64,000 nt of DNA from Vulcanimicrobiota bacterium. Its GTDB lineage: Bacteria > Vulcanimicrobiota > Xenobia > Xenobiales > QWHO01. The stretch is taken from assembly GCA_963169765.1 (NCBI GenBank), contig CAUJEN010000048.1, positions 1 to 64,000 on the forward strand, given 5' to 3'. The position numbers were made by a program, and so were the translations under genes. The notes beneath the pieces were generated by a model. It did not search any database and had not been told where the DNA came from. It worked only from the letters and a program-made list of their open reading frames with translations. Below, piece by piece: positions 20,084-51,700 of the stretch; within the stretch, counting starts at the first letter, position 1; each line of letters starts with the position of its first letter.

Positions 20084-20086
20084 GTG

Positions 20087-22238: not shown

Positions 22239-22260
22239 GCTTCTTCGCGCCGCGCCAGGG

Positions 22261-22755: not shown

Positions 22756-22860
22756 GAGCGAAGGGTAGCACGCCCCCCGGCCGGGGGATGTATCGGGTTT
22801 GTTGCGGTTCGGGCGACCGACGGGACAGGGGCCGCTCGGAGCGAGCGAGAAACGGACCCA

Positions 22861-32191: not shown

Positions 32192-35100
32192 GCATGACCT
32201 CGGAGGGCTGGCTCGGGAGGGCGAGTTCCCGCTCCGATTGGCCGAGCACCTGGGCCGTCGCGGCATCTTCCCTCCGGGCCAGAAGCTGTATTCCCATCAG
32301 GAGGAAAGCCTGCGGGCCTCAAACCAGACCGGGGCCCGGCCCGCGGTGATCGTGACCGCGGGAACGGGCGGAGGAAAGACTGAAGCTTTTCTGTTTCCGA
32401 TGTTGCAGGCCATCGAGGACGCGCCCCGCCAGCCGTTCGGAGGGGTCCAGGCGCTCATCCTGTATCCGATGAATGCCCTGGTGAACGATCAGGTGGATCG
32501 CCTCACCAACTGGCTGGCGGGACAAAAGCATGTGCGCTTTGCGCACTTTACCTCCGACACCCCGGAGGACTGGGCCCACGCGGGAAGGATGGGAGTGCCC
32601 GAATGGGATGAGTCGCGCTGTCGAACCCGGCGCCAGGCCCGCGGCCTGGAGACGCACAAAGGAAAGAAGATCGATGACCCCGCGGAACGTCTGAGCGTTC
32701 CGAACATCTTGATCACGAACTACTCCATGCTCGAATACATGCTGGCCCGGCCTCAGGACCGGGTCTTCTTCGGGAGCGACCTGCAGGTCGTGGTCCTGGA
32801 TGAGGCCCATCTCTACACCGGTACTCTGGCGGCCGAGCTGACCTTGCTCCTGCGGCGAACGCTCGAGCGTTGCGGCAAGCGCGCAGAGGACGTCCTGCAC
32901 CTGGCGACCTCCGCCACCATCGGAACGGGCGCGGACGAGGAATTGCTCGAGTTTACCTCCGTGCTCTTTTCGAAGCCTCGCTGGCTGGTCAAGCTCCTGA
33001 GGGGTGTCCCGGCCGAGCCTGACTGGCCGGCGCCCCGTGCTCCCCGGGTCGAGCCGAGCGCAGACTCGTTTCTGGACGCCGACCGTAACGAGCTCAGCCT
33101 GCGAGCCACCACCATCCGACTGCTGGCCCGCCAGGACCGCCAGGAGGAAGAGCTGGTCGTGGACGAGCGGGAATGCCGACAACTGGCCCCGCTCCTGGCC
33201 ACCCTGGTGGAGGAGGAAACCGTGCAGCAAAGCCTGCGCGACTGCCAGGGACAGGTGGCCGGCTTCCTCTACGGCTGCCTGCGGCATGCGCCCGTCATGC
33301 AGCGGCTCGATCAGCTCCTGCGCGGCCGGCGATTCCAGACCGTCCCCCAACTCTCCCACGCGCTGCTCGGCCAGGACGATGCTCGGGGTCAGGAGGTCGC
33401 CTTACGCCTCCTGTCCCTCGGCTCCGCGGCTCGCCTTCACCTCAAAGAGCTGCCCCTGCTTCCCCATCGGCTGCATCTCATGGTGAGGCCTGCCAGCGGG
33501 CTCTCGGTCTGTTTGAGCTCGAGCTGCTCGGGGCCGCGCTGGGCGCCCTTCGGATGCCTGCAGGATGGCAATCGTGACGTCTGCGAGCACTGCGGACATC
33601 TCGTGCTCAGCCTGCTGCGCTGCTCCAACTGCGGAGAGGCGGCTCTGGGAGCGGACCGGGCCGGAGGGAAAGTCGTGGCGCACCAGCCCAGAGGCTTCAA
33701 GCCGCGCGCCGCCGAGCTGGTTCTCTGTCAGTCCGGCCGCCAGGGCACGCCATACCATCTCGACGCGCTGAAGGGCCGTCCTGTCGGGCCCGGGATGGGA
33801 ACGGAGCTCACCCTCGTGGAGGAGTGCCCCAACTGCGGGGATGAGCTGGACGCTTTTCGCGCCGTGGCCACTCCGGGCGGCTTCTTCCAGTCCATCGTGG
33901 CCGAGACCCTGCTGGCGGGAGTTCCCCCTCTCGTCGGCGAGCATCCTCCCCACATCCTCCCCGCGGAAGGCAGGCGGCTCCTGGCCTTCAGCGACAGCCG
34001 GGCCGAGGCCGCGCGGCTGGGTCCGCGCCTTCGGGTCCAGCACGAGCAGCAGGTCGTCCGCGCGGCCCTGGTGGACCTGCTTCGAGAGGGCGGCGGAGCC
34101 GACCCGGCGGTCATCGCCTACCGGCGCGCGCAGCTGGCCGACCTGCAGAAGAAGCTCACCCCCGAGCTTCCGGAGACCCTGGCCCGCGAGATTCGCGCCG
34201 ACATGGGCCGGGTCGAGGCGGAGTTGCTGGCCCTGGAGCAGGGCGGCACCATCGCGGACTGGGGGCGCAAGCTGGGAGAGCATAAGCTGCTCGAGCAGCT
34301 GCTCGACTTCGAGGGTGGCGAGCGCCACCAGTGGAAGGAGTGGAGCCAGCGGGTCTGGGCCGCCAATCACGCTCGGGTCAGGCTGCAGGCCGAGATGCGG
34401 CTGGGTAACGAGCTGGCGGCTCCCAACCGGCGGAGGTTCAACAACCTCGAGACCATCGGGTGGGCCGAGATCACTTATCCGGGCCTGGACCTCCTCGGCC
34501 CTCCGGAAGGCTTCCTGGGCGAGCTGCCCCGACGAGCGCGCCAGAGCCTGGCCCCGGCCTGGACCGAGCTGCTGGCAGCCTTGCTCGATTGCCTGCGCGG
34601 GGAGTTCGCGATCACTCTGGGCTCGCGCGAGCGCGATCTGCTGTGGCGCCCGGGCGACGTCCCCTACGGGCAGTGGTTCGAGCGGCCTCGCTTCATCGGC
34701 AAGCAAAGGCGCCAGCGCCTCCGCCGGTTCTTGCGAGCCGTGCTGGTCCAGGCAGGAATGGACGGAGACGAGGCCGAGAAGACGGCACCGGAGGTGCTGG
34801 CCGTGATCTTCGACCAGCTGGCGGGCAGGGCCCGCGACCGTCTCAAGAGCGAGGCCGGGTCCGGCCAGCTGCCCTGGCTCGAGGTTTACGCGGGCTACGT
34901 GACCGAGAAGGACGGAGTGACAACCGCCCTGCGCCTGCGCTTCCCCGAGTTGGGCCTGCGCCGGCCCACCCGCCTGTACCGCTGCCAGGTCAACGGGCGC
35001 GTCTGGCCCCGCTCGGTGCTGGGTTGCTCGCCGGACCCGGGCTCGGAGGTCACTCTCGAGGAGATCGCCCCGGAGGAGCTGGACCGCACGCCTCCCTTCA

Positions 35101-37199: not shown

Positions 37200-37226
37200 T
37201 GCGAAACGAGCTCTTGGAGGGATCTT

Positions 37227-40200
37227 ATGCCGCTTGACGGCCAGCACTGGAAAGCCATCTCGCCCAGCCAGTTCCCCTGGGAGGAAGAGGCCCTGGCCTG
37301 GTTGCGCCGCATTCTGGATCGGCCCTGGGCCCTGCGCGGCTGGTCCAACTTCGAGGTGGTGGATGGGCAGGGGCGCCGCTATGAGATCGACGCGCTGGTC
37401 CTGACCGTGCACGGGCTCTTCCTGGTCGAGATCAAGTCTTACTCGGGGCAGGTGCTGGCCGACCCCTACCAGCTCATCCGGCGCCAGGGGCAGGGAGCGC
37501 CCTTCGTGGAGACCAATCCGCTGTCTCTCACCAACCACAAGTGCCGCGTGCTGCGCTCGGCCCTGGGGCGCAACATCCCCCGCCTCGAGGCCGTGCTCTT
37601 TCTGAGCCACCCGGAGGTGCACCTCACGGTCAAGCCGGGCATCCCGCAGCACATCTACACGCGCAACACCCTGCCGGCTTTCCTTCGGAGCGCCGGTCGG
37701 CCGGTGATCGACAGCGCCACCGAGGCCCGAGTCGTGCAGGCCATGAAAGACAGCGGGATCAGCACGCAGACCCGGCGCAGCGTATTCGTGGGCGAGTACG
37801 TGCTGCAGACTCTGCTGGGCGAGGGCCCCGACTGGCAGGACTTTCTGGGCAAGCACCGCTCGATGGACCACGTGCGGCGCGTGCGGGCTTTCTCGGCCCG
37901 CCTCGAGGACCGGGAGGCTCGCGAGCGCGCCAAGCGCGCCGCCCAGCGAGAGTTCCGCCTGCTCGAGTGGATCAACCACGACGGGGTTCTCAAGCCCATC
38001 GACTACAAGGAGCACGAGCTGGGCCACTGCCTGATCTATCCCTTCTACCCGGACGCCGCCCGGCTGGACCACTTTTTGGCCACCCCCGAGCTGGGCGAGC
38101 GTCAGGGCCGGGCCCAACGTTTGAAGCTCTGGCGCCAGCTGGCCGACATCCTCAGGTATGCCCACGAGCGCAAGCTTTACCATCGCGCCCTGGCGCCCCA
38201 GAATGTGCTGATCCTGAGCCCGTCCACCGAGAGCCTGCGTCCTCTCATCATGAACTGGCAGACGGCCCGCGCCTCGGACCAGACCACCGGCACCGTGCAC
38301 CTCCAGGACCTGGTGGAAGACCAGACCACGGCCTACATGGCTCCCGAGGCCATGCTGTATCCGGAGAGCGCCGCCGAGCAGGCCGACCTCTTCTCGCTCG
38401 GTTGCCTCGGCTACTTCATCCTGAGCGGGCAGCCCCCGGCCAGCACGCAGGTCGAGCTGCAGACCCGGCTTCAGGAGTACCCTGGGCTCCGCCTCACGTC
38501 CGTGCTCGACGGCGTGCTGCCCGAGCTGGCGGAGCTGGTGGAGCGCTGCACGCATCCCGACCTGTCCGAGCGGCTGGATTCCGTGCCCGAGTTCCTGAGC
38601 CGGCTCGCCCGCGTGGAGGCGCTTCTGGCCGGCGAGCTGGAGCCCGCGGCCGAGGAGATCGATCCGGCCCGGGCCCAGCCCGGCGATCCCCTGGTGGGAG
38701 GTCTCCTCTTCCAGAAGCCCCTGGGCCAGGGCGGGGTGGCGGTCGCCTACCAGGTGCAGCGGGGCAACGAGACCCTGGTTCTCAAGGTGGCCCTGAAGGC
38801 CGAGAGCAACCAGCTGCTGGAGGACGAGGCGGAGGTGCTGGCCCGGCTCAACGACCGCCAAGTGGTGCAGCTTCGCCAGACCCTCAAGGTCTCCGACCGC
38901 CGCGCCCTGCTCTTGAGCTTCGCGGGTCCCGAGACCCTGGCCGAGCGTCTGCGCCGGGAGGGCCCGCTGCAGCTCGAGCTGTTGAGCCGTTTCGGAGACG
39001 ACCTGCTGCGCCTGGTCGAGGTGCTCGAGAAAGCGGGAGTCCATCACCGCGACCTCAAGCCGGCCAACCTCGGCGTTCTTCCGATGGGGGAGAACAACGA
39101 GCTGCGGCTGGTGCTCTTCGATTTCTCGCTCTCCCGGGTTCCCGTGGACCGGCTGGAGGTGGGCACGCGTGATTACCTGGACCCGTTCCTCAGCCTGCGC
39201 CGACCCCCTCGCTGGGATCTCTCCGCCGAGCGTTATGCCGCCGCACTGACCCTTTACGAGATGGCGACCGGCGTGCTGCCCCGCTGGGGTGACGGACAGA
39301 CCAACCCGGCCGTGGTGGCCTGCAAGCTGGTCCTGGAGGAGGAGCGCTTCCCCCCGGAGCTGCGGGCCAGCCTGGGTGGGTTCTTCCGGCGCGCCCTGGC
39401 TCGCGACGCCAGCCAGCGTTTCGACAATGCCGAGGAGCTGCGCACGGCCTTCCGCCAGGCGCTGGAGAGCCGCCAGGCGGAGGACCAGATCGGGGCCGAG
39501 CGTACGGACTGGAGCCAGGTCGCCGCCGCCACGCCGGTCACCGAGCTGGGCCTCAGCCCTGCGGGGGTTCAGGCTCTGGACCGGATGGGCATCCTGCGGG
39601 CCGGCGACCTCGTGGCCCTGACCCGGGCACGGCTCACGCGCGAGCGAGGGTTGGGCAGCCGGACCCGCCGCGAGCTTCTGGCCGTTCGGGATCGGCTGCT
39701 CGAGCTGCTCGGTCAGCCCGAGCCGGAGGTGGCTCCGGGGCAAGGGCTGGAAGGCCTGCTGGCGTTTCTCGAGCGCGCTGCCGACCCCGGCGAGCAGGCG
39801 CTGGCCCGCGTGTTTCTCCAGCCCGACCTCCACTGGCCTACGCTGCAGGAGCTGGCCCAGGCTCTGCGCGCCGGCCCCAACGAGCTGCGCCGGCAGATGC
39901 CCCGGTTGCGGCGGACCTGGCAGGAGGTCGAGGAGCTGTCTCCGGTCCTCGATCAGGTGGCCGAGCTGCTGGCGGGGCTCGGTGGCGTGGCTGTGGCCGA
40001 GGACGTGGTGCGGGCCCTTCTCATCGCGCGCGGCTCGACCTCCAACCAGCCGTCGGAGCGCCAGGGACGCGCCCGCGCCCTGCTGCGCGCCGCGCTCGAG
40101 CTCGAGGGCCTGAGCGAGACACCCCGGTTCTTCCATCAGCGGATGGAGGGCGACCGTCACCTGGTGGCCGCCCAGAACGCGCTGGTGCCCTATGCCCTGC

Positions 40201-41231
40201 GCCTGGGAGAGGTGGCCGATCAGCTCTCGAGCGAGGAGCCACTGCCTTCCCGCGCTCGGGTGCTCGAGCGCCTCCAGGAGCTTGCGCCCCCGGAGAGAGC
40301 CAGCCCGTTGACGGAGGCCTCGCTGCTGCGCCTGGCCGCGGGGATGGCCAGGCAGGCGGCCCTCTCGTCCCGAGGCGAGTTCTACCCGGTCGGAATGGAG
40401 GCGCGGCGGGCCCTGCTGCTGTCGCACGGGGCGCTTCTGGGAACCTGGTCGCTCACCCCGGCCCAGCTGGCCGAGCGCGTCAAGAGCCGCTATCCCGAGG
40501 CCCGGGACCTGCCTCTGCGGCCGGAGCTGGACCGGCTGCTGGCCGACCTGGAGCTGGACTTCGTGTGGAACGAGGAGAGCGGTGGCTACCATCGTCGCTT
40601 CGGGGGCCTGAACCTCTCCACGACCACTCCCAGCGGCTCGCGCGGGCTCCTCAAGCCGACCCAGGAGCCGATCCCGCAGGCCCAGCTTCACCAGCGTCTG
40701 GCGCGGCTGGTCCGCGAGCGCTCGCCCCTGGTGGTGACCTCCCGCTCGCGGGACCTGGAGAGCGCGCAGGCTGCCCTGGTGGAGCGCTGGGCCTTTCAGC
40801 CCGTGTCCGTGGAGGCGGCCCTGCTGGCCGCCCTGGAAGAGGTCGGCCGCGAGCGCAGGATTCCCTGGGAGACCCTGCTGCGCACCGATCGGGCCGGGCC
40901 CGACCACCCGGACTGGGGCCGCCTCCTGCAGGTGGTGCGACTGGCTCTGGCCCGGGTGGAAACCGAGCTCAAGCTCCGCTCGGGGCCCGTCTTGCTCGAG
41001 CGCCTGAGCCTGCTGGCCCGCTACCAGCCGGACCTCAAACTGGTCGAGGAGCTGCTGGCGTGCAGCGGCCAGCCGGGCTGCCCCGGGCCGGTCTGGGTCC
41101 TGACGGCTGTCCGCTCGGAGGGCGAGCTGCCCAGGGTGGACGGCCGGCCGGTGCCGCTGCCGGTGGCCACGCACCCGGTTTTCTTGCCGGCCAGCTGGCT
41201 GTATGAGAAGGCCGAGGCCGCGCCGGCCTGA
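37227..41231 (+). CDS. NERD domain + tandem Ser/Thr kinase-like domains (first degenerate, second canonical) + C-terminal HhH-containing extension; PglW-like
   Basis: NERD YEIDALVLTVHGLFLVEIKSYSG; kinase 1 with HRALAPQN (catalytic Asp replaced) ; kinase 2 with LVLKV, HRDLKPANL, DFS, GTRDYLDP; GGAGGG RBS 5 nt upstream of ATG 37227. Confidence 0.85.
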   Translation: MPLDGQHWKAISPSQFPWEEEALAWLRRILDRPWALRGWSNFEVVDGQGRRYEIDALVLTVHGLFLVEIKSYSGQVLADPYQLIRRQGQGAPFVETNPLSLTNHKCRVLRSALGRNIPRLEAVLFLSHPEVHLTVKPGIPQHIYTRNTLPAFLRSAGRPVIDSATEARVVQAMKDSGISTQTRRSVFVGEYVLQTLLGEGPDWQDFLGKHRSMDHVRRVRAFSARLEDREARERAKRAAQREFRLLEWINHDGVLKPIDYKEHELGHCLIYPFYPDAARLDHFLATPELGERQGRAQRLKLWRQLADILRYAHERKLYHRALAPQNVLILSPSTESLRPLIMNWQTARASDQTTGTVHLQDLVEDQTTAYMAPEAMLYPESAAEQADLFSLGCLGYFILSGQPPASTQVELQTRLQEYPGLRLTSVLDGVLPELAELVERCTHPDLSERLDSVPEFLSRLARVEALLAGELEPAAEEIDPARAQPGDPLVGGLLFQKPLGQGGVAVAYQVQRGNETLVLKVALKAESNQLLEDEAEVLARLNDRQVVQLRQTLKVSDRRALLLSFAGPETLAERLRREGPLQLELLSRFGDDLLRLVEVLEKAGVHHRDLKPANLGVLPMGENNELRLVLFDFSLSRVPVDRLEVGTRDYLDPFLSLRRPPRWDLSAERYAAALTLYEMATGVLPRWGDGQTNPAVVACKLVLEEERFPPELRASLGGFFRRALARDASQRFDNAEELRTAFRQALESRQAEDQIGAERTDWSQVAAATPVTELGLSPAGVQALDRMGILRAGDLVALTRARLTRERGLGSRTRRELLAVRDRLLELLGQPEPEVAPGQGLEGLLAFLERAADPGEQALARVFLQPDLHWPTLQELAQALRAGPNELRRQMPRLRRTWQEVEELSPVLDQVAELLAGLGGVAVAEDVVRALLIARGSTSNQPSERQGRARALLRAALELEGLSETPRFFHQRMEGDRHLVAAQNALVPYALRLGEVADQLSSEEPLPSRARVLERLQELAPPERASPLTEASLLRLAAGMARQAALSSRGEFYPVGMEARRALLLSHGALLGTWSLTPAQLAERVKSRYPEARDLPLRPELDRLLADLELDFVWNEESGGYHRRFGGLNLSTTTPSGSRGLLKPTQEPIPQAQLHQRLARLVRERSPLVVTSRSRDLESAQAALVERWAFQPVSVEAALLAALEEVGRERRIPWETLLRTDRAGPDHPDWGRLLQVVRLALARVETELKLRSGPVLLERLSLLARYQPDLKLVEELLACSGQPGCPGPVWVLTAVRSEGELPRVDGRPVPLPVATHPVFLPASWLYEKAEAAPA

Positions 41232-41261
41232 CGTCCAACGTTGAAGGGTACGGCCACCAGT

Positions 41262-41392
41262 GGGGCGCATTGCGTCCACGGTATAAACTGGATTGGGAAG
41301 GTTTGTTTGGCAGGATACCTGTCGAATGCCGGCCCACGAGCTTTGGATCGAACACGAAGGATCGAGGTGCTCAGGTGGCGCGAGCGGATCTG
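41262..41392 (+). repeat. ~130-bp leader element (includes TATAAA box, GAGGTG RBS and first codons of the AAA+ gene), copy A; near-identical copy at 63204-63332
   Basis: Direct alignment: GGGAAGGTTTGTTTGGCAGG(G)ATACCTGTCGAA(T/G)GCCGGCCCACGAGC and GGATCGAGGTGCTCAGGTGGCGCGAGCGGATC identical in both copies. Confidence 0.85.
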
Positions 41393-42331
41393 TTACTGGA
41401 CCTGGTCAGGGCCGGGACGCAAGGGGATCAGGCGCGCTTTCGCAAGGTCGTCGAGGCCTTGATTGCGGAGGAGCGCTCGAAGCAACACCACATTCTAGCT
41501 GACCACCTGAGTGCTCAGCTTCGCGTCAACGGGAACGGGAGCAAGACCAGCGTCGCTTTTCAGCGAGCCAGCGACTATTTCACCTCATCGATACCGCAAA
41601 GGACCTTCACCGATCTGGTCCTACCCGAGCCGGTTCTGGAAGCTTGCCGCGAGATCGTCGAGGAGCACCATCGACGCGAGGTCCTTTTCTCCCACAGCCT
41701 GGAGCCGCGACATCGCATCCTGCTGACCGGCCCCCCCGGGAATGGAAAGACTAGCCTGGCGGAAGCTCTGGCCACGGAACTCATGGTGCCGTTCTATCGC
41801 CTTCGCTACGAGAAGGTGATCGGCAGCTACCTGGGCGAAACCGCGCAGCGGCTGGCCAACCTCTTCGTCGAGGCGAGGGCTCAACATTGCGTGCTGTTTC
41901 TCGACGAGTTCGAAACGCTGGGAAAGGAGCGCGGGGACGAGCACGAGACCGGTGAGATCAAGCGGGTCGTTTCGTCCTTGCTTCTGGAGGTGGATGCCCT
42001 GCCGAGCCACACGGTGATCGTCACCGCTACCAACCACCCCGAATTGCTTGACCGGGCAGTGTGGCGCCGTTTCCAGGTTCAGCTCGAGCTGCCGGCTCCG
42101 GGCCCGGCACAGATTCGCGAGTGGTGGCAACGTTATCAGGCCGCCACGGGCCTCAAGCTGAAGCGCAACATTGACAATCTGACCGAGCGCTTCCGAGGAG
42201 CAAGCTTCTCGGACCTGGAGAATTTTGGGGCAGACCTGCAGCGTCGCTTTGTCTTAAGTCTCCCCGAGGCCTCCGTGGAGACCCTTCTGAGCAAGAGACT
42301 CAAACGGTGGAAGCCCCGAAAGCAGAGCTGA
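41375..42331 (+). CDS. AAA+ ATPase (classical AAA clade)
   Basis: Walker A LLTGPPGNGKTSLA, Walker B CVLFLDEFE, sensor-1 TATN, Arg finger region RAVWRRF; no in-frame ATG, GTG at 41375 preceded by GAGGTG RBS (ORF opens with TTG at 41270). Confidence 0.8.
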   Translation: MARADLLLDLVRAGTQGDQARFRKVVEALIAEERSKQHHILADHLSAQLRVNGNGSKTSVAFQRASDYFTSSIPQRTFTDLVLPEPVLEACREIVEEHHRREVLFSHSLEPRHRILLTGPPGNGKTSLAEALATELMVPFYRLRYEKVIGSYLGETAQRLANLFVEARAQHCVLFLDEFETLGKERGDEHETGEIKRVVSSLLLEVDALPSHTVIVTATNHPELLDRAVWRRFQVQLELPAPGPAQIREWWQRYQAATGLKLKRNIDNLTERFRGASFSDLENFGADLQRRFVLSLPEASVETLLSKRLKRWKPRKQS

Positions 42332-42342
42332 GTCCGACCTGA

Positions 42343-44895
42343 ATGCCCGACGCAACCAGCCATCCCCTCCTTCTACTGCCGAGACCAACCAGCGCCGAAC
42401 GTAAAGGCAAAGGCGGCGGGGGAGCAAAGCTCGCCAAACCCTCGCGCTCCGAGCAGGCACGGCGTCTTGGGCCCGAGCTGAGGTCGCTGACCCTGGCCTT
42501 GGAGCAGAAGCGCCTGCGGCTTCAGGCGGGGGTGAGCGGCATCGTCCCGGAGGAGGTGCTGGTTCTCGAAACAGCCGGGCCGGTCCAGAATTTTCTAAAC
42601 GCCGTCCGCAAGATCGAAGAGCTGGAATGGATGGCTGAGTGGGATCGCGACTTTGAGCCCGACGAGTACTTTCAGGACGCGAAGAGTCCGGAGAAGGTCC
42701 TGGGCGGGCGTCTGTACCTCGTCCTGACCACCGATGCCGCCATCAAGGATCTCCTGGCTCTCTGGAACCTGTGGGAGAAAGGCCAGAAACTCCCGACAGG
42801 ATTTGCTCCTTGGGGCGAGGCTTTCACCCATCTCAAGACGATCCGATTCTGGAATGCGCATGATCGTATGGAGGCCACCGGCGTTCTCGAGGACTGGGAG
42901 CGTCGCATCGAGTCCGGTGCCGAGCTCGTTCCGGCCGAAGTGGAGCTGTGGTTTCGTGCCGGTCCCGAGCGGAGAGCGAGGGCTGCGGAGAGAGTGCGAA
43001 CGCTGGTCGTGGGCTGTGGGGGCCGGGTTGTCCAGGTGGCCGCCATTGAGGAAATCCATTACCATGGGCTCCTGGTGGAGATCCCCCGAAGTGAGGTTCG
43101 TCGGCTGGACGAGATCGACGAGGTCGACCTCTTCCTCTGCGAGCAGGTCCAGTTCTTCCGCCCGGTTGGTCAGATGGTCGCACCGAGCAGCGAAGAGTCC
43201 ACCCCCGACGCGACGGAGCAATTTGCTGGCGAAGTCGCGGGGGAGCCGGTAGCTGCTCTGCTCGACGGGCTGCCTCTCGAGAACCATGACGTCCTGGCGG
43301 GCCGCCTCCTCGTCGACGACCCCGATGGTTGGGCCTCGGGTTATCCGGCAGCCCGGCGCGAGCACGGAACTTGCATGGCCTCGCTCATCGTGCAGGGAGA
43401 TCTCGAGCGGCCATCGGGGGGCCTCCCCCGCCCGTTGTACGTGCGCCCCATCATGCAGCCTGTGACCGGAGACTATCCAGGTACGGGGGAGCGTTGCCCC
43501 GAAGACCAGCTCCTGGTGGACCTGGTGCATCGTGCGGTGCGGCGGATGTTCGTCGGGGATGGTGGGTCCGGCCCGGTGGCGCCCACGATCAAGGTCATCA
43601 ATTTCTCGATCGGGGATCGGGACCGTCCTTATGATCACATGATGAGCCCGCTGGCTCGATTGCTGGACTGGCTCAGCTGGGAGCACAAGGTTCTGTTTGT
43701 CGTCAGCGCCGGCAATCAGCGTCGACCTATCGATCTGGACACCACTCGGCCCGCGTTTGAGGCTCTGGCTCCACCGGCTCGCGCCGACATGATCCTTTCC
43801 AAAACAAGAGAGGAGCACATTTATCGGCGCATCCTCTCGCCGGGCGAATCGATCAATGCTCTGACGGTGGGGGCAACCTACTCGGATCATTCGAGTCCGA
43901 CCGGCGCCGGCACGGTGTTCGTACTGCCTGGCGGCATCCCGGCTCCTTACACTCGGCAGGGACCAGGCTATCGTGGGATCATCAAGCCGGACCTGGTCAT
44001 TGCGGGCGGCCGGCTTCCGTTCCGGATAGACCTTGCCGCTCACACAAAGATTCATCTGGTGGAGGGCGTGCTGGCTCCCGGGCACAAGAGCGCGGCCCCG
44101 GGCCCGGGGCCAGGCCAACGCAACCGGACGCGCTACAGCCGGGGCACCAGCAACGCCGCCGCCCTGTTGACCCGCCAGGGTGCGAGGTTTACTGAGCTCC
44201 TGGCGAGTCTCCGCCGAGACCCTGGCGGCCAACTGCTTGATGAGGTCCCCGAGAGTCTCTTTCTGAAGGTCCTGCTCGTGCACGGCGCTCGCTGGCCCGA
44301 CGAGTGCGTCAGCCTCCTCACCCGAATTTCTGGATTCGCTCCGGAGAGCAAGGAAGGGCTGACGCTGACCCGACGGTTCACCGGTTATGGCCTGCCGAAC
44401 TTCGAGCGGGTTGCCTTCTGCACAGACCAGCGGGTGACCGCGCTGAGCGGTGGCGCACTGGAGGAGGACCAGGGCCACGTTCACAGCCTGCCGCTCCCGA
44501 CGGCACTTTCTGGTCAGCGAGGAAAGCGACGTGTCACGGTCACGCTGGCCTATTTCACGCCCGTGCAACCAGGCCGGCGAGAATACTCGGTCGCCGACCT
44601 CTGGTTCAAGATCGAGAATCGCGGCGTCCTGCAGCTTGAAGGCGCTGGCGCGGATTTCTATGCCGTCGAGCGCGGTACGGTGCAGCACACCATCTTTGAG
44701 GGAGAGCGCGCCAAAGTCTTCGATGACGAGGAGAGCCTGAACATCCAGGTGTCGTGTCGATCCCAGGCGGGCCCGATCGTGGAGCCGATTCCCTATGCCC
44801 TGGCCGTCACGTTGGAGGTGGCGCCGAAGCTGAATCTTCCCATTTATTCCCAGGTCCGAGAGCGTCTGCGCCTCAGGATTCGGCCTCAAGAGTGA
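42343..44895 (+). CDS. S8 subtilisin-like serine peptidase with ~300-aa N-terminal domain of unknown function
   Basis: Catalytic motifs LLDGLP (Asp), HGTCMASLI (His), VVSAGNQ (oxyanion Asn), GTSNAAALL (Ser); starts 11 bp after AAA+ stop. Confidence 0.85.
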   Translation: MPDATSHPLLLLPRPTSAERKGKGGGGAKLAKPSRSEQARRLGPELRSLTLALEQKRLRLQAGVSGIVPEEVLVLETAGPVQNFLNAVRKIEELEWMAEWDRDFEPDEYFQDAKSPEKVLGGRLYLVLTTDAAIKDLLALWNLWEKGQKLPTGFAPWGEAFTHLKTIRFWNAHDRMEATGVLEDWERRIESGAELVPAEVELWFRAGPERRARAAERVRTLVVGCGGRVVQVAAIEEIHYHGLLVEIPRSEVRRLDEIDEVDLFLCEQVQFFRPVGQMVAPSSEESTPDATEQFAGEVAGEPVAALLDGLPLENHDVLAGRLLVDDPDGWASGYPAARREHGTCMASLIVQGDLERPSGGLPRPLYVRPIMQPVTGDYPGTGERCPEDQLLVDLVHRAVRRMFVGDGGSGPVAPTIKVINFSIGDRDRPYDHMMSPLARLLDWLSWEHKVLFVVSAGNQRRPIDLDTTRPAFEALAPPARADMILSKTREEHIYRRILSPGESINALTVGATYSDHSSPTGAGTVFVLPGGIPAPYTRQGPGYRGIIKPDLVIAGGRLPFRIDLAAHTKIHLVEGVLAPGHKSAAPGPGPGQRNRTRYSRGTSNAAALLTRQGARFTELLASLRRDPGGQLLDEVPESLFLKVLLVHGARWPDECVSLLTRISGFAPESKEGLTLTRRFTGYGLPNFERVAFCTDQRVTALSGGALEEDQGHVHSLPLPTALSGQRGKRRVTVTLAYFTPVQPGRREYSVADLWFKIENRGVLQLEGAGADFYAVERGTVQHTIFEGERAKVFDDEESLNIQVSCRSQAGPIVEPIPYALAVTLEVAPKLNLPIYSQVRERLRLRIRPQE

Positions 44896-45416
44896 TCTGA
44901 CCAAGCCCCTTCCGGCCGGGCGAGGCCGCGCCCGGGCTGCGCGAGAGGAGGCCGAGAAGAGCTTCGAAGAAAGGTGAAGTACTATCAATGTCGCCATGGA
45001 GCAAGTGGGGATGCCGTGCAGCAAAGCAGAGATTCTGAAGAGTTCCAAATTCCCGAGGGGAGGGGCTCCCGAGTGGGCAGGCTCTTGTGCTTGCCACCAG
45101 AGAAGCGAGATCTCATCCTTGCTTTGGCATCCAGCATGGCGCAAAAGCTTTACCTCCGCAGGGACGACATCAATATGGACACGTGCCGTAGCAGTCAGAA
45201 CACCGGATCGTTTTGGGCATGTGTGCTCGCGTCAGTCCGAGGGTAGTATCCTCCAAGAACGCGGACGACGGGGAAACCCCTCTGTGATTCGTTTTCCGGT
45301 GATTCTTGGCAGGAATTGCACTCTCGCCGCGAAGAGTTGCCCGTGCCGCGAGTACCTGCTTCAACTCAGAGTGTTCTGGACATATTCCAGCTTTGCCGTC
45401 AGGTCGGCACATCGCC

Positions 45417-46811
45417 ATGTTGAAGCTCCTCCCGAACCGCAAGCCTTTCCCTCGGGGCCGCCTGCTCGCTCGCAGCGCGAGGACGGGCGTCCACCAGATG
45501 CTGCGCCAGGCCAACGAACCCTATTACTGGTACCGGAACAGGGACGACTATGCTCATGACCTCGGCGCCGAAGACCTCTTCCTGGACGACCTTGGCGTCT
45601 GGTTCTTCGAGCAGTTCGACACGAGCCTTCCGGCGTTCCCGTATCTAGGGGTCGCTCTTGGCCTGCTCATGGCTCGCTGGGATGACTTGAAGTCGGCTGT
45701 CGTACCTGCCAAGCCCTTCTGGAACCGGCACTACAACAGTAAGCGCAAGGCCCACGCGGGCGAGCCTCGCTCCCTGCTCCGACTCGACCGCGCCCGGGAT
45801 GCCCTGTCTTTGTCTCTCGGGGATCGCGTCGAAGGTCCGGACGTTGAGCGCGGTTTCGACTGGCGCCTTCTCCAGGGGCGTTACGGGCCGGAGCTCTTCT
45901 GGCCCCGCTGGTTCGATTTGCCCTACGAGCGTGCCCTGTGGCGGCTCTCGCCCAACCAGGAGTTCGAGCCGTGGAGCCCCTGGCTGTTGCTGCCAGAGGA
46001 GCTGAGACGCTTCCAGGACCTCGAGTTGCCGCAGCCACCGGACCGCTCAGATACTTCCTCCGGCGTCGAGCTGCCGGAGGGTTGGTCCCCGACCGTCCCC
46101 AGCTATGAGATTCTCCCGGTCGAGTTCTCCACGCCCGACCTGCCCCTGCGGGTCGGCGCCGAGGAGAAAGACCTGGCTCGATTCGAGCTACATGTGCTGG
46201 ACCAGGGTCCCAACCCAACCTGCGTCGCTCACGCCGTCTGCACCGCGCTCGACATTCTGCGCAAGCGCAAGCCTCGCCAGCGCGACCACCAGTTCTTCGC
46301 CCCTGCCGACCTCCACATGCGCTGCGGATCGAGCTGGTCCACCGGGCGGAAGCTCTCCGCGGTGATCGACGAGCTCCGGAAGGGCTTGCCTGCTAGCCAG
46401 ACCCCGAAGAGCCGACCAAACTATGGCTCCCCCACAGTCCGCGACCTGAGCGTGCGGGATATTCCCCGACTTAAGGCCCACCTCGCTGCCGGCTGGGTGG
46501 TGGTGATAACCACTTATTTGCCGGAGGAGACCTACCGCAGCAACGCCTTCCGCGAGTTTGGAGAGCCGTTGCGCCCACTCCCCGGCCAGCAACGCCGCAC
46601 ATCCGGCCACGCCTGGGCACTGGTCGGCTACGAGCACGTGGACGGCAACCAGCAGTGGAAGTATCAGGGCCGCTTCATCGCCCTGAACAGCTGGGGCCCG
46701 GGCTTTCCGGATAGACCGCGCCTCCGTCCAGGACTGGTCTCCCTCCCGTTCTCTTTTGTCTACAGCGAAGGGATCGAGGCTTACGCCTTGCGGCTGCCAA
46801 GCTGTGAGTGA
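45417..46811 (+). CDS. Papain-like (C1 family) cysteine peptidase, cytoplasmic
   Basis: QGPNPTCVAHAVCTALD (Gln/Cys region), HAWALVGYEH (His), NSWGPGF (Asn-Ser-Trp-Gly) matching papain catalytic landmarks; no signal peptide; start among 45306/45417/45498 uncertain. Confidence 0.6.
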   Translation: MLKLLPNRKPFPRGRLLARSARTGVHQMLRQANEPYYWYRNRDDYAHDLGAEDLFLDDLGVWFFEQFDTSLPAFPYLGVALGLLMARWDDLKSAVVPAKPFWNRHYNSKRKAHAGEPRSLLRLDRARDALSLSLGDRVEGPDVERGFDWRLLQGRYGPELFWPRWFDLPYERALWRLSPNQEFEPWSPWLLLPEELRRFQDLELPQPPDRSDTSSGVELPEGWSPTVPSYEILPVEFSTPDLPLRVGAEEKDLARFELHVLDQGPNPTCVAHAVCTALDILRKRKPRQRDHQFFAPADLHMRCGSSWSTGRKLSAVIDELRKGLPASQTPKSRPNYGSPTVRDLSVRDIPRLKAHLAAGWVVVITTYLPEETYRSNAFREFGEPLRPLPGQQRRTSGHAWALVGYEHVDGNQQWKYQGRFIALNSWGPGFPDRPRLRPGLVSLPFSFVYSEGIEAYALRLPSCE

Positions 46812-46826
46812 ATTCTGGAGGTGTGG

Positions 46827-48623
46827 ATGAGCCAGGGCGGCACGTTCGAGACTAAAGAGCCCTATCTTGTGGAGCTGCTGCGCAAGATCAGCCAGGGCAG
46901 GATCCAGTTGCCCGACTTCCAGCGCGGCTGGGTCTGGGATGACGGCCACATTCGCTCGCTGCTGGCCAGCGTAACCCTGTCCTACCCCATCGGAGCCGTC
47001 ATGCTGCTCGAGACGGGCTCGGAGACGGTCCGCTTCAAACCTCGTCTCTTCGAGGGAGTTTCGCTCTCGGACGACTGCCAGCCCGAGCGCCTGGCTCTGG
47101 ACGGCCAGCAGCGGCTGACCTCCCTCTACCTGGCCATCGCCAGCGGGCAGCCCGTCCCCACGCGGACCGAGAAGCGACAGGAGGTCCAGCGGCTCTACTA
47201 CCTCGACATGGAAGCGGCTCTTGACCCGGAGCGAGACCGCGAGGAGGCCGTGGTCTCCATACCCTCCTCACGGCAGGTCACCTCCGACTTCGGACGCAAG
47301 ATCGAGCTCGATCTGAGCGAGCCGCACCACGAGTATGCCCGGCGCATGTACCCGTTTCACTGCCTGTTTGACCAGAGTGGAGCCGGCTTCCGCTGGGAGA
47401 GCGGGTATCGCGAGCACTACCAGCACAGCCCGGAATCGAGCCAGTTCCTGATGCGGTTCCAGCAGCAGATCGTGATCCCGTTCCAGCAGTACCGCATCCC
47501 GGTTATCGAGCTCCTGAAGCAGACTCCCAAGGAAGCCGTGTGCCAGGTGTTCGAGAAGGTCAATACCGGCGGTGTCAGTCTGACCGTTTTCGAGCTCGTG
47601 ACCGCCTCCTTCGCCGCCGAGGACTTCCTGCTGCGCGAGGACTGGAATGATCGGGCTGGACGCTTGCGTGAGCGCAAGGTGCTGGAATCGATCGACGCCA
47701 GTGACTTCCTGACCGCCGCGACCTTGCTCACCACCTACGAGCGCAGCCAGTCGGGCAGGGGCCCGGTGAGCTGCAAACGCAAGGACATACTCGAGCGACT
47801 AGACCTGGAGGCCTACCGCCAGACCGCCCCGCGGGTCGAGGACGGTTTCCGGCGGGCATCCGAGTTCCTGGCCACGCAAAAGGTCTACGACTCCCGCAAC
47901 CTGCCCTACAAGACGCAGCTCGTCCCGCTGGCCGTTGTCTGTGCGCTTCTGGGCATGGACTACGACCAGGACCTCGTCCGCGACAAGCTTGCTCGTTGGT
48001 ACTGGTGCGGCGTTTTCGGCGAGCTCTACGGGGGGAGCACGGATGCGCGCTTTGCCTTTGACGTGCCGGAGCTGTGCGCCTGGATTCGCCAGCCCGACGG
48101 CCCGCTGCCCCGCACGGTGCAGGAATGCAATTTCGCCCCCACCCGTCTCCTGAGCATGCAGACCGGGGGGCGGGACTTCATGAATGGGGACGACATCGCC
48201 CTTACGACCTACTTCGATCTGGCCGTGGACATCCACCACGTGTTTCCGGCGGACTACTGCAAGAAGAGCCAGCTCCCCGAGCGCCAGTGGAACAGCGCGG
48301 TCAACAAGACCCCGCTGACGTCGCGCACCAACCGACGCGTCGGGGGACACGCGCCCAGCCACTATCTGCAGAGCCTGATCGCCGCCCGTGTCGTCGACCA
48401 GGCGAAGCTCGATCCGATTCTGCGCAGCCACCTGATCGATCCCGGTTTCCTCTGGGCGGATGACTTCTCGGGATTCCTGCGCTCGCGCGCGGCTCAGCTC
48501 CTGAGCGCGATCGAGCGAGCTACCGGGAAGGAGATTCCCGGCCTCGATTCCGACGAGGTCCGCGACAGCTTTGGAGGGCCGCTCCTGCGAGCTGATCCTG
48601 CTTCCACAGCGGCCCAGGGCTGA
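46827..48623 (+). CDS. GmrSD-family type IV restriction-like nuclease (DUF262 ParB-like N-domain + DUF1524 His-Me finger C-domain)
   Basis: N-term LPDFQRGWVWD (DUF262 signature), C-term VDIHHVFPADYCKK...NKTPLTSRTNR (DUF1524/HNH-like); ATG 46827 with GGAGG RBS. Confidence 0.8.
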   Translation: MSQGGTFETKEPYLVELLRKISQGRIQLPDFQRGWVWDDGHIRSLLASVTLSYPIGAVMLLETGSETVRFKPRLFEGVSLSDDCQPERLALDGQQRLTSLYLAIASGQPVPTRTEKRQEVQRLYYLDMEAALDPERDREEAVVSIPSSRQVTSDFGRKIELDLSEPHHEYARRMYPFHCLFDQSGAGFRWESGYREHYQHSPESSQFLMRFQQQIVIPFQQYRIPVIELLKQTPKEAVCQVFEKVNTGGVSLTVFELVTASFAAEDFLLREDWNDRAGRLRERKVLESIDASDFLTAATLLTTYERSQSGRGPVSCKRKDILERLDLEAYRQTAPRVEDGFRRASEFLATQKVYDSRNLPYKTQLVPLAVVCALLGMDYDQDLVRDKLARWYWCGVFGELYGGSTDARFAFDVPELCAWIRQPDGPLPRTVQECNFAPTRLLSMQTGGRDFMNGDDIALTTYFDLAVDIHHVFPADYCKKSQLPERQWNSAVNKTPLTSRTNRRVGGHAPSHYLQSLIAARVVDQAKLDPILRSHLIDPGFLWADDFSGFLRSRAAQLLSAIERATGKEIPGLDSDEVRDSFGGPLLRADPASTAAQG

Positions 48624-48763: not shown

Positions 48764-51700
48764 GTGATTCGGGAGCTGGTGCAGAACGCCGACGACGGCG
48801 GAGCGCTGAAGATCTGCCTGGTCCGGACCGAGCCGATCGCCGGAGTCGACCACCCGCTGCTGAACGCGCCGGGGCTGCTGGTGATCAACGACGGCCGATT
48901 TCAAGAGTCCGACAACGCAGCCATTCGCCGCCTCGGGCTGGGGCACAAGATCGTCGAGACAGGAACGATCGGAAAATTCGGCCTGGGGCTCAAGAGCGTC
49001 TTCCATCTCTGCGAGGTGTTCTTCTTCGGGGCTTCCTCGGTCCGGAAGCACGATGGCAAGGAAGCCGGCGGAGCCTTCGTGACCATCCTGAACCCCTGGT
49101 CACGCCTCGAGAGCCCGAGCCTGGGCGCGACTTTCAAAGCCTGGAATCGAGTCACCTCCAAGGACAAGAACAAGCTCCTCGAGCTGGTCCGGAGCTCGGT
49201 AAAGTGGGAACAGTGGTTCTTCGTCTACCTGCCCTTTCGCCGCAGCGAGTTGTGTCCGCGCGATTCCACAGGTGAGCCGGTCGCCATCACGGCGAACTTC
49301 GCTGGCGATAGGGAGATTCTCCAGGAAGATCTGGCTCGCTGGTGGCCGAGTCTGGCACAGGAGATGTCCCCGGTTCTTCCCCTCTTGCACAACCTGACCG
49401 AGCTCGAGCAAAAGCCGCGCCCCGGGGAGACACTGGCAAGGCTGGTGCTCGCCCCCAAAGGGAGCCGATCGGCCTACCCGGAGGGCTTGACCCGTGGGAA
49501 GGAGCGCGCTCTGGGAGGGCAGTTCGACCTTACCTTCGGGACGGACAAAGCGATACCGGTTCCCTTCGGTGGTCAGGAAGCCCATCTCGCCGACCCCCGG
49601 CTGCAGGAGTTGAAGAACAATTCCCACTGGCCGCGCCAGCCAGTGCTCTTCGTAGAGGGAGAGGACCGCCTGCAGAGCGCGGACAAGAATGCTCCCCACG
49701 CCGCCGCTTATTTCTCGCGCCTGGCCGGCGAGAAGGGACTGCTGAGAATCCGGCTGGCGACCTTTCTCCCGGTGGGTGATCCCCTGGAGGCGATCCCGCT
49801 GGAGGGCGATCTGTCGGTCGACCTGATGCTGCACGGGTTCTTCTTTCTGGACCCGAGCCGCTCCAAGGTGCGCTTCCCGGACGCCCCTACGGCGCCCGGC
49901 AGCATCATCAACGAAGAGCAACTCATGGGGAGCTGGAACCACTACGTCCTTCATCTGGGCACATTGCCTCTGGTGCCGCGCGCTCTGTGCGAGTTCTGCG
50001 AGAGAGCCAGGCTGACACACCCTCAGGCCAGCCTTCTCACCGGAGCCTTCTCCAACTCCGACTTTTGCCGTTCTTACCTCGACTCGCTCACCAGCCGGTT
50101 TACCTGGGAATGTCGACTGAACGGGGGCCCAGAGGGAGCCCGTTTCGACGACGAGCTCGCGGTGACTGCTGTGGCCGGGAGAAAGCCGCAAGTGAGCCGC
50201 TGGGTTCTGCTGTCGGCCGAGGAAGATCCACGCCCTCCCTACCAGTTTCCTCCCGGCGCCGAGGATGAGCTGCTGGATACCTTCTCCGAATGGCGCCGAT
50301 TGGCCGAGCTCGGCCCGGTTTTGCGCCCGTCGCAACCCCGCCTCTCCGCCATCTGTCCGCGATCGTCGCTCTCCCTGTTCGAGCTCAGCGCACTCCTCGG
50401 GGAGCAGCCCGAGGGCTTCTTCGAGGCGATCGAGCATGAGCGCGGCAATCGCCCTGCGCCCCGAGTGCGCAGATTCCACCTTCTTGCCGACCTGCTCCAG
50501 GCGAGTTGGGAGCACGACGAGGCGGCCCGCGGCTGGATTGCCCGGTGGGCGGGCTCGTTTCTCTCTCTGCTCTTGACGAGCTTTTCCTACGAGCGCATCA
50601 AGGACCTGAGCGCGCCGTTGACGCGACTGGTGCGGATGGCACCGAGGGAGGCATGCTTTGTGCCCACCCTGGATGGGGGAGAAGCGGCCTACGTGCTCAT
50701 CCAGCAGCTCAATCACGCGACGAAGGGGCGGCTCCTGACCGTTCCCTCCTATCTCCTGACCGAGGAACTCGGGTCCAATCCAAAGCTGGCCTCCGATTTG
50801 ACGGACAGCATGCTCGGCGTGCTCAGCGGCGGCTCCAATGCCGAGGTGCTGGACCGGTTGGCCCACCAGATCGTCCTCTCCGCGGCGGAGCCAAGGGCGG
50901 AGGTATGGGCCCGAAACCCTCACCTCAAGTTGTTCCGCGCCTACGACGCTGCTCTGGAGGCGCCGCGGGAGTGTCGCGTCCGCTTCGCCGATCTTCAGCG
51001 CGCCCATGAAAGCCATCGCCTCTTTCTGCTGAAGGCCTTTAACCCCGACCTCGAGGCGCTGCTGGCGCGGGCGCTCGCGCCCGGTCCAGCCGGCCCGGTT
51101 CTGGTCCTGAGGCATAGCGCCGCCGAGCTGGCCTACGGGATGCCCGAGCGGGTGCCGGACTGTGGTCTTGATTCCATCGTCAGGCTACTGTCCATGAAGC
51201 CGACCCCCGCGCTGGGAGACCCGGGCGCGCGGGGCAGCCTGCTGGCCAGACTGTTGACGCAGGCGCCAAGCGCGCACCAGAGGTTCGCTCTACGATATCT
51301 CCTTCACGGAGCCAGGGAGCACTTCGACGAGGCCGGACCGCTCTGGCTCCTCCGCCCTCAGGATACCGAGGCTTCCTGGCCGGGAGTGCTGGCGACCATT
51401 CTGCAATCCAGCGACGAGAGGTGGCGGGTGATCCACCCCGACGCCACGCGCGCCCTGAGCGCGGCGGCCCAGGACTGGCTCGATCTGGCGGCGCCCGAGG
51501 AGCGCCAGGTGTGTGCCGATTTGCAGACCCGGGAGGATCTCGGGTGTCTGAGTCAGTCTCAGAGGCTCTTCATTCAGAGGTCGGTCCAGGACGACCAGGT
51601 TTTCAAGTCTCTCTGGATCCACGAGACGCACGATCAGGGGCTGACTTCGATTCAGGAGCAGGTCTTCCTCGAGAGCAACTACCCGCTTCCTGCCGAGTTG

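Follow-up and report, generated by a model that had tools for sequence, protein, structure and literature searches.

An intact, divergent IetAS ATPase-protease gene pair in a chromosomal defence island of a Vulcanimicrobiota bacterium

In this study, which was based on a 64,000-nt stretch (the window) of contig CAUJEN010000048.1 from a Vulcanimicrobiota bacterium, we analysed two adjacent genes that encode an AAA+ ATPase and a subtilisin-like protease. The ATPase gene ends at 42331 and the gene for the 850-aa S8 protease starts at 42343, in agreement with the 11-bp distance given in an earlier note on this sequence. The features of the pair, all of which lie on the forward (+) strand, are as follows:

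41232 to 41374, +: upstream intergenic region of 143 nt, from the PglW stop codon to the IetA start, with a GAGGTG ribosome-binding site inside
41375 to 42331, +: ietA, a 318-aa classical-clade AAA+ ATPase, the probable antitoxin/regulator partner
41729 to 41752, +: Walker A, GPPGNGKT (aa 119; K125), with G119, P121, G122, G124 and K125 invariant in 77 homologues
41828 to 41836, +: pore-loop 1, Tyr152-Leu-Gly, an aromatic-hydrophobic-Gly motif
41903 to 41914, +: Walker B, DEFE (aa 177; D177, E178), with D177, E178 and F179 invariant in 77 homologues
42023 to 42073, +: sensor-1 TATN (aa 217; N220) to the second region of homology with the arginine fingers R231/R232 (WRRF)
42332 to 42342, +: 11-nt spacer from the ietA stop codon to the ietS ATG
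42343 to 44895, +: ietS, an 850-aa cytoplasmic S8 subtilase, the probable toxin/effector partner
42343 to 42438, +: disordered IetS tail, aa 1-32, running from hydrophobic through basic to Gly-rich (HPLLLLPRP...KGKGGGG)
42439 to 43167, +: IetS N-terminal domain, aa 33-275 (predicted fold)
43168 to 43242, +: IetS aa 276-300, Gly276-Gln277 and then an acidic, disordered linker of variable sequence
43243 to 44412, +: IetS S8 catalytic domain, aa 301-690
43264 to 43266, +: catalytic D308
43363 to 43365, +: catalytic H341
43714 to 43716, +: oxyanion N458
44149 to 44151, +: catalytic S603
44413 to 44895, +: IetS C-terminal beta-sandwich domain and terminal helix, aa 691-850 (stop codon included)

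The ietA reading frame opens with a TTG at 41270, while the GTG at 41375 has the ribosome-binding site 6 nt on its 5' side, yields exactly the 318-aa product that is recorded at NCBI and lies where the alignment to the IetA of the Agrobacterium plasmid pTiC58 begins at residue 1. The intergenic region upstream presumably carries the module's own promoter; a scan for sigma-70 promoters and terminators around both genes returned nothing beyond chance, the sigma-70 consensus being uninformative for a high-GC, non-enteric genome. The two genes are likely to be translationally coupled. The IetA gene was found directly 5' of the IetS gene and on the same strand in all 80 related loci, which come from many phyla; the called genes of relatives overlap by 8 nt in four cases and are separated by a 37-nt gap in two. 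The opposite-strand ORF at 42595-45144 was rejected as a high-GC shadow ORF. The two genes are bracketed by an imperfect direct repeat of 15 nt (41210-41224 and 44918-44932), but its reading as an insertion scar was dropped and it was not counted as evidence, because chance alone would produce about two such repeats in 4.7 kb at 66% GC.

The three ATPase motifs that the earlier note had named were all present, and IetA matched the Pfam AAA model with E=9e-31. Beyond the Walker motifs, N220, H221, W230, R231, R232 and F233 were invariant among the 77 homologues. Among solved structures, IetA is most closely related to p97/Cdc48 D2 domains (E ~1e-40). Residue 152 of the pore loop is Tyr in 58 and Phe in 19 of these homologues, and the following L153, G154, E155 and T156 are invariant. 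An aromatic-hydrophobic-Gly pore loop is a signature of substrate-threading AAA unfoldases.

The catalytic Asp, His, Asn and Ser of IetS, described earlier as intact, are indeed so and are invariant in 32 full-length homologues, although the Pfam Peptidase_S8 model covers only aa 337-625 (E=2e-14). When the IetS alignment was used as a profile against the sequences of the PDB, nothing matched at E<=0.001, hence sequence comparison detects no solved structure of the IetS type. Most S8 peptidases are secreted enzymes with a degradative role, and one relative of the pair lies amid metabolic genes only, as might be expected if the subtilase had a housekeeping function or were secreted, with the ATPase as its chaperone, in sporulation, secretion or nutrition. 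However, neither a signal peptide nor a transmembrane segment was found in IetS, which has no hydrophobic segment (maximum Kyte-Doolittle 19-residue mean of 1.21). The phyletic spread of the pair is patchy, which suggests horizontal transfer, and its neighbours are variable. Uniformly housekeeping contexts, which the earlier note had named as the observation that would speak against a defence role, were not seen: the relatives span many phyla and commonly have defence-gene contexts, adjoining genes of Hma, Gabija, type I R-M and SNF2 helicases. Together with the full-length matches to IetA and IetS models described below, these observations effectively refute the housekeeping explanation.

PADLOC contains profile models of IetA and IetS to which the two proteins align over their full length: IetA matches PDLC04232 (E=3.3e-137; aa 1-317 on profile positions 1-321 of 330) and IetS matches PDLC04233 (E=7.1e-296; aa 6-848 on 3-850 of 855). 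The candidate abortive-infection or effector module of the earlier note thus corresponds to a named system, which that reading did not recognise as already known; the pair is an intact, divergent copy of IetAS rather than a new module. IetA scored 201 bits against the NCBIfam IteA_antiphage equivalog, below its cut-off of 510, and IetS scored 81.6 bits against IteS_antiphage (cut-off 900) with an alignment confined to aa 413-743. Because these scores fall far under the cut-offs, the pair does not count as an equivalog of the tested systems; it represents a clade that belongs to their family but is distant from them. This separate, deep clade is PADLOC PDLC04231-04234. The clade is very large, the protein search having returned over 3,000 relatives, and the pair adds a divergent member to it, being at most 48% identical to any other sequence found, whereas sampled relatives are on average about 62% identical to each other. 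No experimental test of any member of PDLC04231-04234 was found in the searched literature, and the clade appears never to have been examined experimentally. The value for annotation is small, since the usual defence-system finders would annotate the pair as IetAS.

The IetAS system was originally reported from pTiC58, as a factor that determines the stability and incompatibility of this plasmid (Yamamoto et al. 2009, as cited in PMC13069673 and PMC8562856). The order of the genes, ATPase then protease, is the same in pTiC58 and here, the products are of similar size (328 and 836 aa there, 318 and 850 aa here), and the spacing is similarly tight (3 nt there, 11 nt here). The founding copy is located on a Ti plasmid, whereas the present one is chromosomal and lies in a defence island. 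IetA shares 32% identity with pTiC58 IetA (E=2e-39). In the case of IetS, BLASTP similarity to its pTiC58 counterpart is restricted to aa 497-746 (28%); profile comparison using hhalign extended the relationship to aa 298-842, i.e., the protease and C-terminal domain (probability 97.7%, E=2.5e-12), and detected no homology between the N-terminal ~295 aa of IetS and the pTiC58 IetS N-terminus.

The anti-phage IetAS systems of B. cereus and E. coli (Gao et al. 2020; Stokar-Avihail et al.) act by abortive infection and require the protease active site. These tested systems (NCBIfam IteA/IteS; PADLOC PDLC02195-02202) likewise pair an AAA ATPase with an S8 protease, and their models match here significantly, although this IetS aligns to them over the protease core only (aa 394-760). 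In published family members the protease IetS acts as the toxin, with IetA as its antitoxin, and protection is by abortive infection (PMC13069673, PMC8562856). In other family members, co-expression of a phage protein also turns IetAS toxic to the cell, with the phage protein triggering abortive infection. A similar assignment was made for the Mycoplasma AAA-ATPase/subtilisin-like pair TA132/133, in which genetics identified the ATPase as the antitoxin and the protease as the toxin (PMC8562856); set beside the present pair by description, it has the same two-gene architecture and a shorter protease of 757 aa.

We consider it probable that ietAS here is a self-contained, horizontally mobile, two-gene system that combines a toxin-antitoxin pair with defence by abortive infection. 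This IetS type matches 167 plasmid records, mostly large rhizobial and agrobacterial replicons. These records, the pTiC58 origin of the system and the GC3 of the module, which marks it as an acquired gene pair, would all suit a pure addiction module that stabilises a genomic island or plasmid by post-segregational killing without acting against phages in this host. Such a restricted function is unlikely, because the sampled relatives are mostly chromosomal and placed amid defence genes, and other family members protect against phages; the two roles are, moreover, compatible.

Another explanation is an ATP-dependent protease machine resembling Lon, FtsH or ClpXP, in which IetA would unfold substrates such as phage proteins and feed them to IetS, the toxicity of lone IetS being a side effect of ungated proteolysis. 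IetA belongs to the same classical AAA clade as p97, FtsH and the proteasomal ATPases, its pore loop is conserved and the two genes are tightly coupled, all of which is in line with this. Subtilases, however, are open-cleft, monomeric endopeptidases and not chambered proteases. Moreover, the toxicity that appears upon phage-protein co-expression and the genetics in three systems, in which IetA neutralises rather than activates its partner (PMC13069673, PMC8562856), make a protease machine rather improbable.

The defence-island setting that was proposed earlier proved to be real. Upstream of ietAS lie genes encoding BrxD, a DruE-like helicase and PglW, and downstream of it are those encoding a DUF262/GmrSD protein, a TmtA-like giant of 2507 aa and a DrmD-like SNF2 helicase; the 501-aa ORF immediately downstream of ietS had no matches. 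The presence of the pair identifies the 30 kb around it as a defence island with several unclassified large genes. The related loci differ in their neighbours, among which other defence genes are frequent. When 98 immediate neighbours, taken from 25 of the related loci, were scanned with PADLOC, many defence families were found; the scan had no control set and, for this reason, no formal enrichment statistic is claimed.

In this setting, ietAS could be a component of a BREX-type-2-like system formed with PglW, BrxD and the helicase, as PglW ends 143 nt 5' of ietA on the same strand. It could also be a variant of ietHAS, which consists of an SNF2 helicase, IetA and IetS and in which the adjacent SNF2 helicase is needed (PMC13069673). 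The IetA-IetS core is common to both, the island does contain an SNF2 gene, and such genes were found in 9 of the 80 related loci, three of which (L010, L016 and L063) have it directly adjoining the pair. Unlike in ietHAS, no helicase gene adjoins ietAS here, where the direct neighbours are PglW upstream and the 501-aa ORF downstream. Three genes and 11.4 kb separate the pair from the SNF2 gene (56284-58980) further downstream, which is coupled to the 2507-aa ORF by a 4-nt overlap. In addition, PglX, PglY and PglZ were not present among the ORFs scanned in the window, and the junction between PglW and IetA coincides with a break in GC3, which falls there from 0.90 (PglW) to 0.73 (IetA). PglW (one weak match), BrxD, the DruE-like helicase and a 1202-aa ORF are missing from essentially all of the 80 related loci. 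Because each of them, like the 501-aa ORF, the DUF262 protein and the 2507-aa giant, was absent from these loci or had a single weak match, they were rejected as parts of the system. Membership in a larger system is thus very improbable. What was found here for the IetAS reading comprises family membership, intact catalytic residues, the operon structure and the defence-island context.

As a self-contained IetAS system, the pair would act through a cytoplasmic subtilisin-like protease, IetS, whose uncontrolled activity would damage the cell. IetA, a presumed hexamer with an intact threading pore loop, would use ATP to restrain it. A phage product may upset this control, after which IetS would cut proteins of the cell or of the phage, and growth arrest or death of the infected cell would precede phage release.

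How an ATPase could restrain a protease may be encoded in the ~300-aa N-terminal extension. The earlier description of it as free of recognisable motifs stands at the sequence level, as Pfam gives nothing in aa 1-300 of this IetS even at E<=10; in the same search, 17 homologues gave scattered, single-member noise, and Inhibitor_I9 (PF05922) was matched in none of the 18 sequences. The region is conserved across the clade and is a predicted folded domain rather than an ad hoc extension. In aa 33-275, a long helix (35-63) is predicted to be followed by two beta-alpha-beta-beta-alpha-beta ferredoxin-like units (~67-170 and 171-275). The preceding tail has a pLDDT below 50 at aa 1-27, and its consensus, MPERPLLILPxP..RRKKxGGGG, is kept across the clade.

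IetS may thus be organised like a zymogen, with a disordered N-terminal tail that could serve as an engagement segment (aa 1-32) gripped by the AAA partner, and with the second ferredoxin-like unit perhaps acting on the active site as a subtilase pro-domain; the one basis for the latter is similarity to a very common fold. Compared with I9-type subtilase zymogens (pro-subtilisin E, pro-Tk-SP, PCSK9 and CspB), which have one pro-domain unit, IetS would have two tandem units together with the helix and the tail, lacks the I9 sequence signature and is cytoplasmic. We tentatively propose, as a possibility that we consider doubtful, that the conserved 300-aa N-terminus is a built-in control in which IetA grips the tail and the second of the tandem units is an I9-like inhibitor, making IetS an ATP-gated cytoplasmic subtilase zymogen that is freed when a phage factor blocks IetA or draws it away. 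If true, this would supply a mechanism for IetAS. The pore loop of IetA, the disordered but conserved tail and the pro-domain-like units offer concrete, testable ideas on how the ATPase might restrain the protease. In a variant reading, the tandem units would be ACT-like small-molecule sensors; Foldseek favours tandem ACT domains for them.

Ahead of the catalytic domain, G276 and Q277 are invariant and Met278 is nearly so; aa 280-296 have a pLDDT below 50 and the pairwise identity of the linker is just 0.37; speculatively, aa 276-300 might be an autoprocessing site of IetS.

The AAA+ ATPase (IetA) and the S8 protease (IetS) of the window are encoded by two intact genes that are coupled as an operon. 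GC content is high here (~65%), and codon-position GC distinguishes real genes from shadow ORFs. The two genes are:

41375-42331, + strand: IetA, 318 aa; the ORF opens with TTG at 41270, likely start GTG at 41375
42343-44895, + strand: IetS, 850 aa; start ATG at 42343

The GTG is the likely start of IetA because it is preceded by a GAGGTG ribosome-binding site, its product is identical to a 318-aa NCBI protein record and the alignment with IetA of pTiC58 begins at residue 1. The earlier note, which had described an AAA ATPase ending 11 bp before an 850-aa S8 peptidase, was confirmed in all details: the spacer is 11 nt, the ATPase motifs GPPGNGKT, DEFE and TATN lie at aa 119, 177 and 217, and the catalytic residues D308, H341, N458 and S603 of IetS are invariant in 32 full-length homologues. 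The Pfam S8 match is limited to aa 337-625, and the N-terminal extension, which had been called free of recognisable motifs, had no Pfam match within aa 1-300 even with the threshold relaxed to E<=10.

The pair belongs to IetAS, an already named and catalogued system. The PADLOC models PDLC04232 (IetA, E=3.3e-137, aa 1-317 on profile positions 1-321 of 330) and PDLC04233 (IetS, E=7.1e-296, aa 6-848 on positions 3-850 of 855) span both proteins end to end; the clade is already covered by PADLOC models of its own. The NCBIfam equivalogs IteA and IteS, which were built around experimentally tested anti-phage systems, also matched significantly, although far under their cut-offs (201 bits against 510 for IteA and 82 against 900 for IteS), which points to a deep clade apart from the tested systems. 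The founding pair, located on a Ti plasmid of Agrobacterium fabrum C58, is arranged in the same way, with an ATPase of 328 aa and an S8 peptidase of 836 aa whose genes are separated by 3 nt. Its IetA is 32% identical to that of the window (E=2e-39), and profile comparison aligned IetS from the catalytic Asp to the C-terminus (aa 298-842 on pTiC58 287-824, probability 97.7%, E=2.5e-12), whereas no similarity was detectable in the N-terminal ~295 aa.

Anti-phage activity of IetAS was reportedly observed by Gao et al. in 2020. According to two later papers, IetAS was first described as a toxin-antitoxin system for the stability and incompatibility of pTiC58, in which the protease is the toxin and the ATPase the antitoxin (cited in PMC13069673 and PMC8562856). 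In Mycoplasma, deletion of the ATPase gene alone was lethal while deletion of the pair or of the protease gene was tolerated, and the protease was toxic in E. coli unless neutralised by the ATPase (PMC8562856). An IetAS system of B. cereus works through abortive infection, and co-expression of the SPbeta protein YosG makes it toxic (bioRxiv 10.1101/2022.08.27.505566). For relatives it is thus established which partner is toxin and which antitoxin, that the protease is required, that infection is aborted and that a phage protein can be the trigger. The pair of the window itself shows intact genes, membership of the family, coupling as an operon, mobility and a defence context, and is best explained as a toxin-antitoxin and abortive-infection module. 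A pure addiction module would suit the plasmid-stability role, but is less likely, as most sampled relatives are chromosomal and lie among defence genes, and other family members protect against phage. The earlier proposal of a candidate abortive-infection or effector module pointed in the right direction, as indicated by the IetAS model matches and the defence-gene contexts.

IetA is a classical-clade AAA protein. Among solved structures it is closest to p97/Cdc48 D2 domains (E ~1e-40), followed by FtsH, and the NCBIfam ranking also gives the CDC48, FtsH and PAN families. Among 77 homologues, the Walker A lysine, the Walker B Asp-Glu, the sensor-1 Asn, two arginines of the second region of homology and the pore-loop motif [Y/F]-L-G-E-T are invariant. 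An intact aromatic-hydrophobic-Gly pore loop is a mark of polypeptide-threading AAA proteins, and IetA is probably a working unfoldase or remodeller rather than a mere binding partner. A Lon-like unfoldase-protease machine, which such a loop would also fit, is less likely for a pair whose relatives use the ATPase as antitoxin.

An AlphaFold2 model of IetS (32-sequence alignment; pLDDT 73.9, pTM 0.79) and a separate model of aa 28-300 (pLDDT 79.6) predict the following architecture:

aa 1-32: disordered tail, conserved, running from hydrophobic to basic to Gly-rich
aa 35-63: long helix
about aa 67-170 and 171-275: two beta-alpha-beta-beta-alpha-beta units
Gly276-Gln277: invariant, then a variable acidic linker, predicted disordered
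after the linker: S8 domain
C-terminus: beta-sandwich, resembling GOLD and pre-peptidase C-terminal (PPC) sandwiches

A sequence search of the PDB copy detected no IetS-like chain. Structurally, chains containing a pro-domain (pro-Tk-SP, unprocessed pro-subtilisin E, PCSK9) scored high with 291-353 residues aligned, and mature enzymes aligned over ~220-250. Further pro-domain matches were pro-kumamolisin (7.5), the I9-type inhibitor POIA1 (6.8) and the PCSK9 and CspB pro-domains (6.1-6.4), with generic ferredoxin-like proteins (ribosomal S6, ACT domains) scoring in between; tandem-ACT regulatory subunits ranked first in Foldseek with weak E-values (TM ~0.2). Within the clade, conservation of the N-terminal domain equals that of the protease domain (pairwise identity 0.61 and 0.64), the linker (0.37) being the sole variable part, so the N-terminal domain is not a hypervariable sensor. 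We infer that IetA, by ATP-driven engagement, perhaps of the N-terminal tail, would hold a pro-domain-inhibited IetS inactive, and that a phage factor blocking or diverting IetA would free the protease. It is rather doubtful that this structural hypothesis is essentially right; if true, it would matter moderately for the mechanism of IetAS, and it is the one part of the finding with some upside.

The pair lies between an upstream block that runs from BrxD to PglW and a downstream block that runs from the 501-aa ORF to the SNF2 helicase; housekeeping genes occupy 1-17 kb.

Genes around the IetAS pair
12020-14482, - strand: MVP-like protein, 820 aa (Major Vault Protein shoulder 3.9e-28, Vault_3, Band_7/SPFH)
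within 17319-26541, + strand: CHASE2-adenylate/guanylate cyclase, 624 aa (modest PADLOC PycC match, 1.7e-27)
21835-26541, + strand: large cyclase-AAA_16-TPR protein (modest PADLOC PycC match, 2.2e-10)
within 27331-41231, + strand: BrxD (PADLOC 2e-107)
within 27331-41231, + strand: 1202-aa ORF without Pfam or PADLOC match
within 27331-41231, + strand: DruE-like DEAD helicase, 1733 aa, with MrfA Zn-binding domain (MZB, formerly DUF1998; 8.5e-208)
within 27331-41231, + strand: PglW, full-length, NERD and two kinase domains (E=0)
within 45306-48623, + strand: 501-aa ORF without a match in any library
within 45306-48623, + strand, after the 501-aa ORF: DUF262/GmrSD_N protein, 600 aa (2e-28)
within 48764-58980, + strand: 2507-aa ORF, sacsin/HATPase-like at the N-terminus only (Pfam SACS 1e-19, weak TmtA matches)
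within 48764-58980, + strand: DrmD-like SNF2 helicase (PADLOC PDLC02634, full length, 1e-264)

GC3 of the pair is the island minimum (0.73-0.74 versus 0.86-0.90 in the genes just upstream), and the same type of IetS was found in 167 plasmid records, mostly rhizobial. Low GC3, the flanking blocks and varied neighbours are typical of a defence cassette that is self-contained and mobile. The four co-oriented upstream genes may form an unusual or partial BREX-type-2-like system; the scanned ORFs of the window included no PglX, PglY or PglZ. Downstream, IetS is followed by ~410 nt without an assigned gene and then by the 501-aa ORF; further on, the giant and SNF2 genes overlap by 4 nt as an operon. 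The cyclase genes lie just upstream of the island and may serve either signalling or defence, and the bacterial MVP-like protein lies outside the island. A 15-nt imperfect direct repeat brackets the pair (41210-41224 / 44918-44932, GGCCGAGGCCGCGCC / GGGCGAGGCCGCGCC), by estimate roughly what chance would give at this GC content.

At E<=1e-5 the search with IetS found over 3,261 relatives, of which many are full length at ~45% identity; the closest non-self relative reached 48%, and the copy in the window is a divergent IetAS with at most 48% identity. In a scan of genomes that represent species, 80 loci were located. They belong to Gammaproteobacteria, Myxococcota, Bacillota, Planctomycetota, Gemmatimonadota, Chloroflexota, Cyanobacteriota, Bacteroidota, Omnitrophota and further groups, and in all 80 an IetA homologue lies directly upstream of IetS on the same strand. 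Across these loci the other genes of the window show no conserved adjacency to the pair: BrxD, the 1202-aa and 501-aa ORFs and the 2507-aa giant had no match nearby, and PglW, the DruE-like helicase and DUF262 had one weak match each. Nine loci contain an SNF2 helicase gene, which directly neighbours the pair in three of them (upstream in L010, downstream in L016 and L063), recalling the published three-gene ietHAS variant (PMC13069673) and suggesting that similar variants are also present within this clade. Dependence of the pair on PglW or on the distant SNF2 helicase is less likely in the light of these counts.

The neighbourhood analysis of homologous pairs, for which uniformly housekeeping contexts had been named as the contrary outcome, found defence-gene neighbours to be common. 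Pre-computed Pfam annotation of six long-contig relatives showed one metabolic context, one methyltransferase and restriction-enzyme pair following IetAS, and four loci in which DUF499 genes precede the pair, joined in three by DUF1156 methylase genes. These genes match PADLOC Hma models, and two of the four loci also have OLD/UvrD (Gabija-like) genes. The 98 immediate neighbours from 25 loci matched 336 PADLOC families, including type I R-M methyltransferase and specificity subunits, SNF2 (BrxHII/DrmD/HmaA), MADS and Hma, a qualitative result, since the scan had no control set. A housekeeping or secreted protease, for which the metabolic context might speak, is less likely; IetS lacks any hydrophobic segment and is therefore cytoplasmic. 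In one sub-clade (L001, L006, L083-L086), ietA closely follows the end of a co-oriented DUF499 ATPase gene with a PADLOC HmaC match, in front of which there is in most cases a DUF1156 methylase gene. This could reflect either a composite Hma-IetAS island that recurs or a functional link between the two. The gap to ietA is 59 nt in L083-L085, a further ATPase gene intervenes in L086, and some loci of this sub-clade also carry Gabija-like OLD/UvrD genes upstream.
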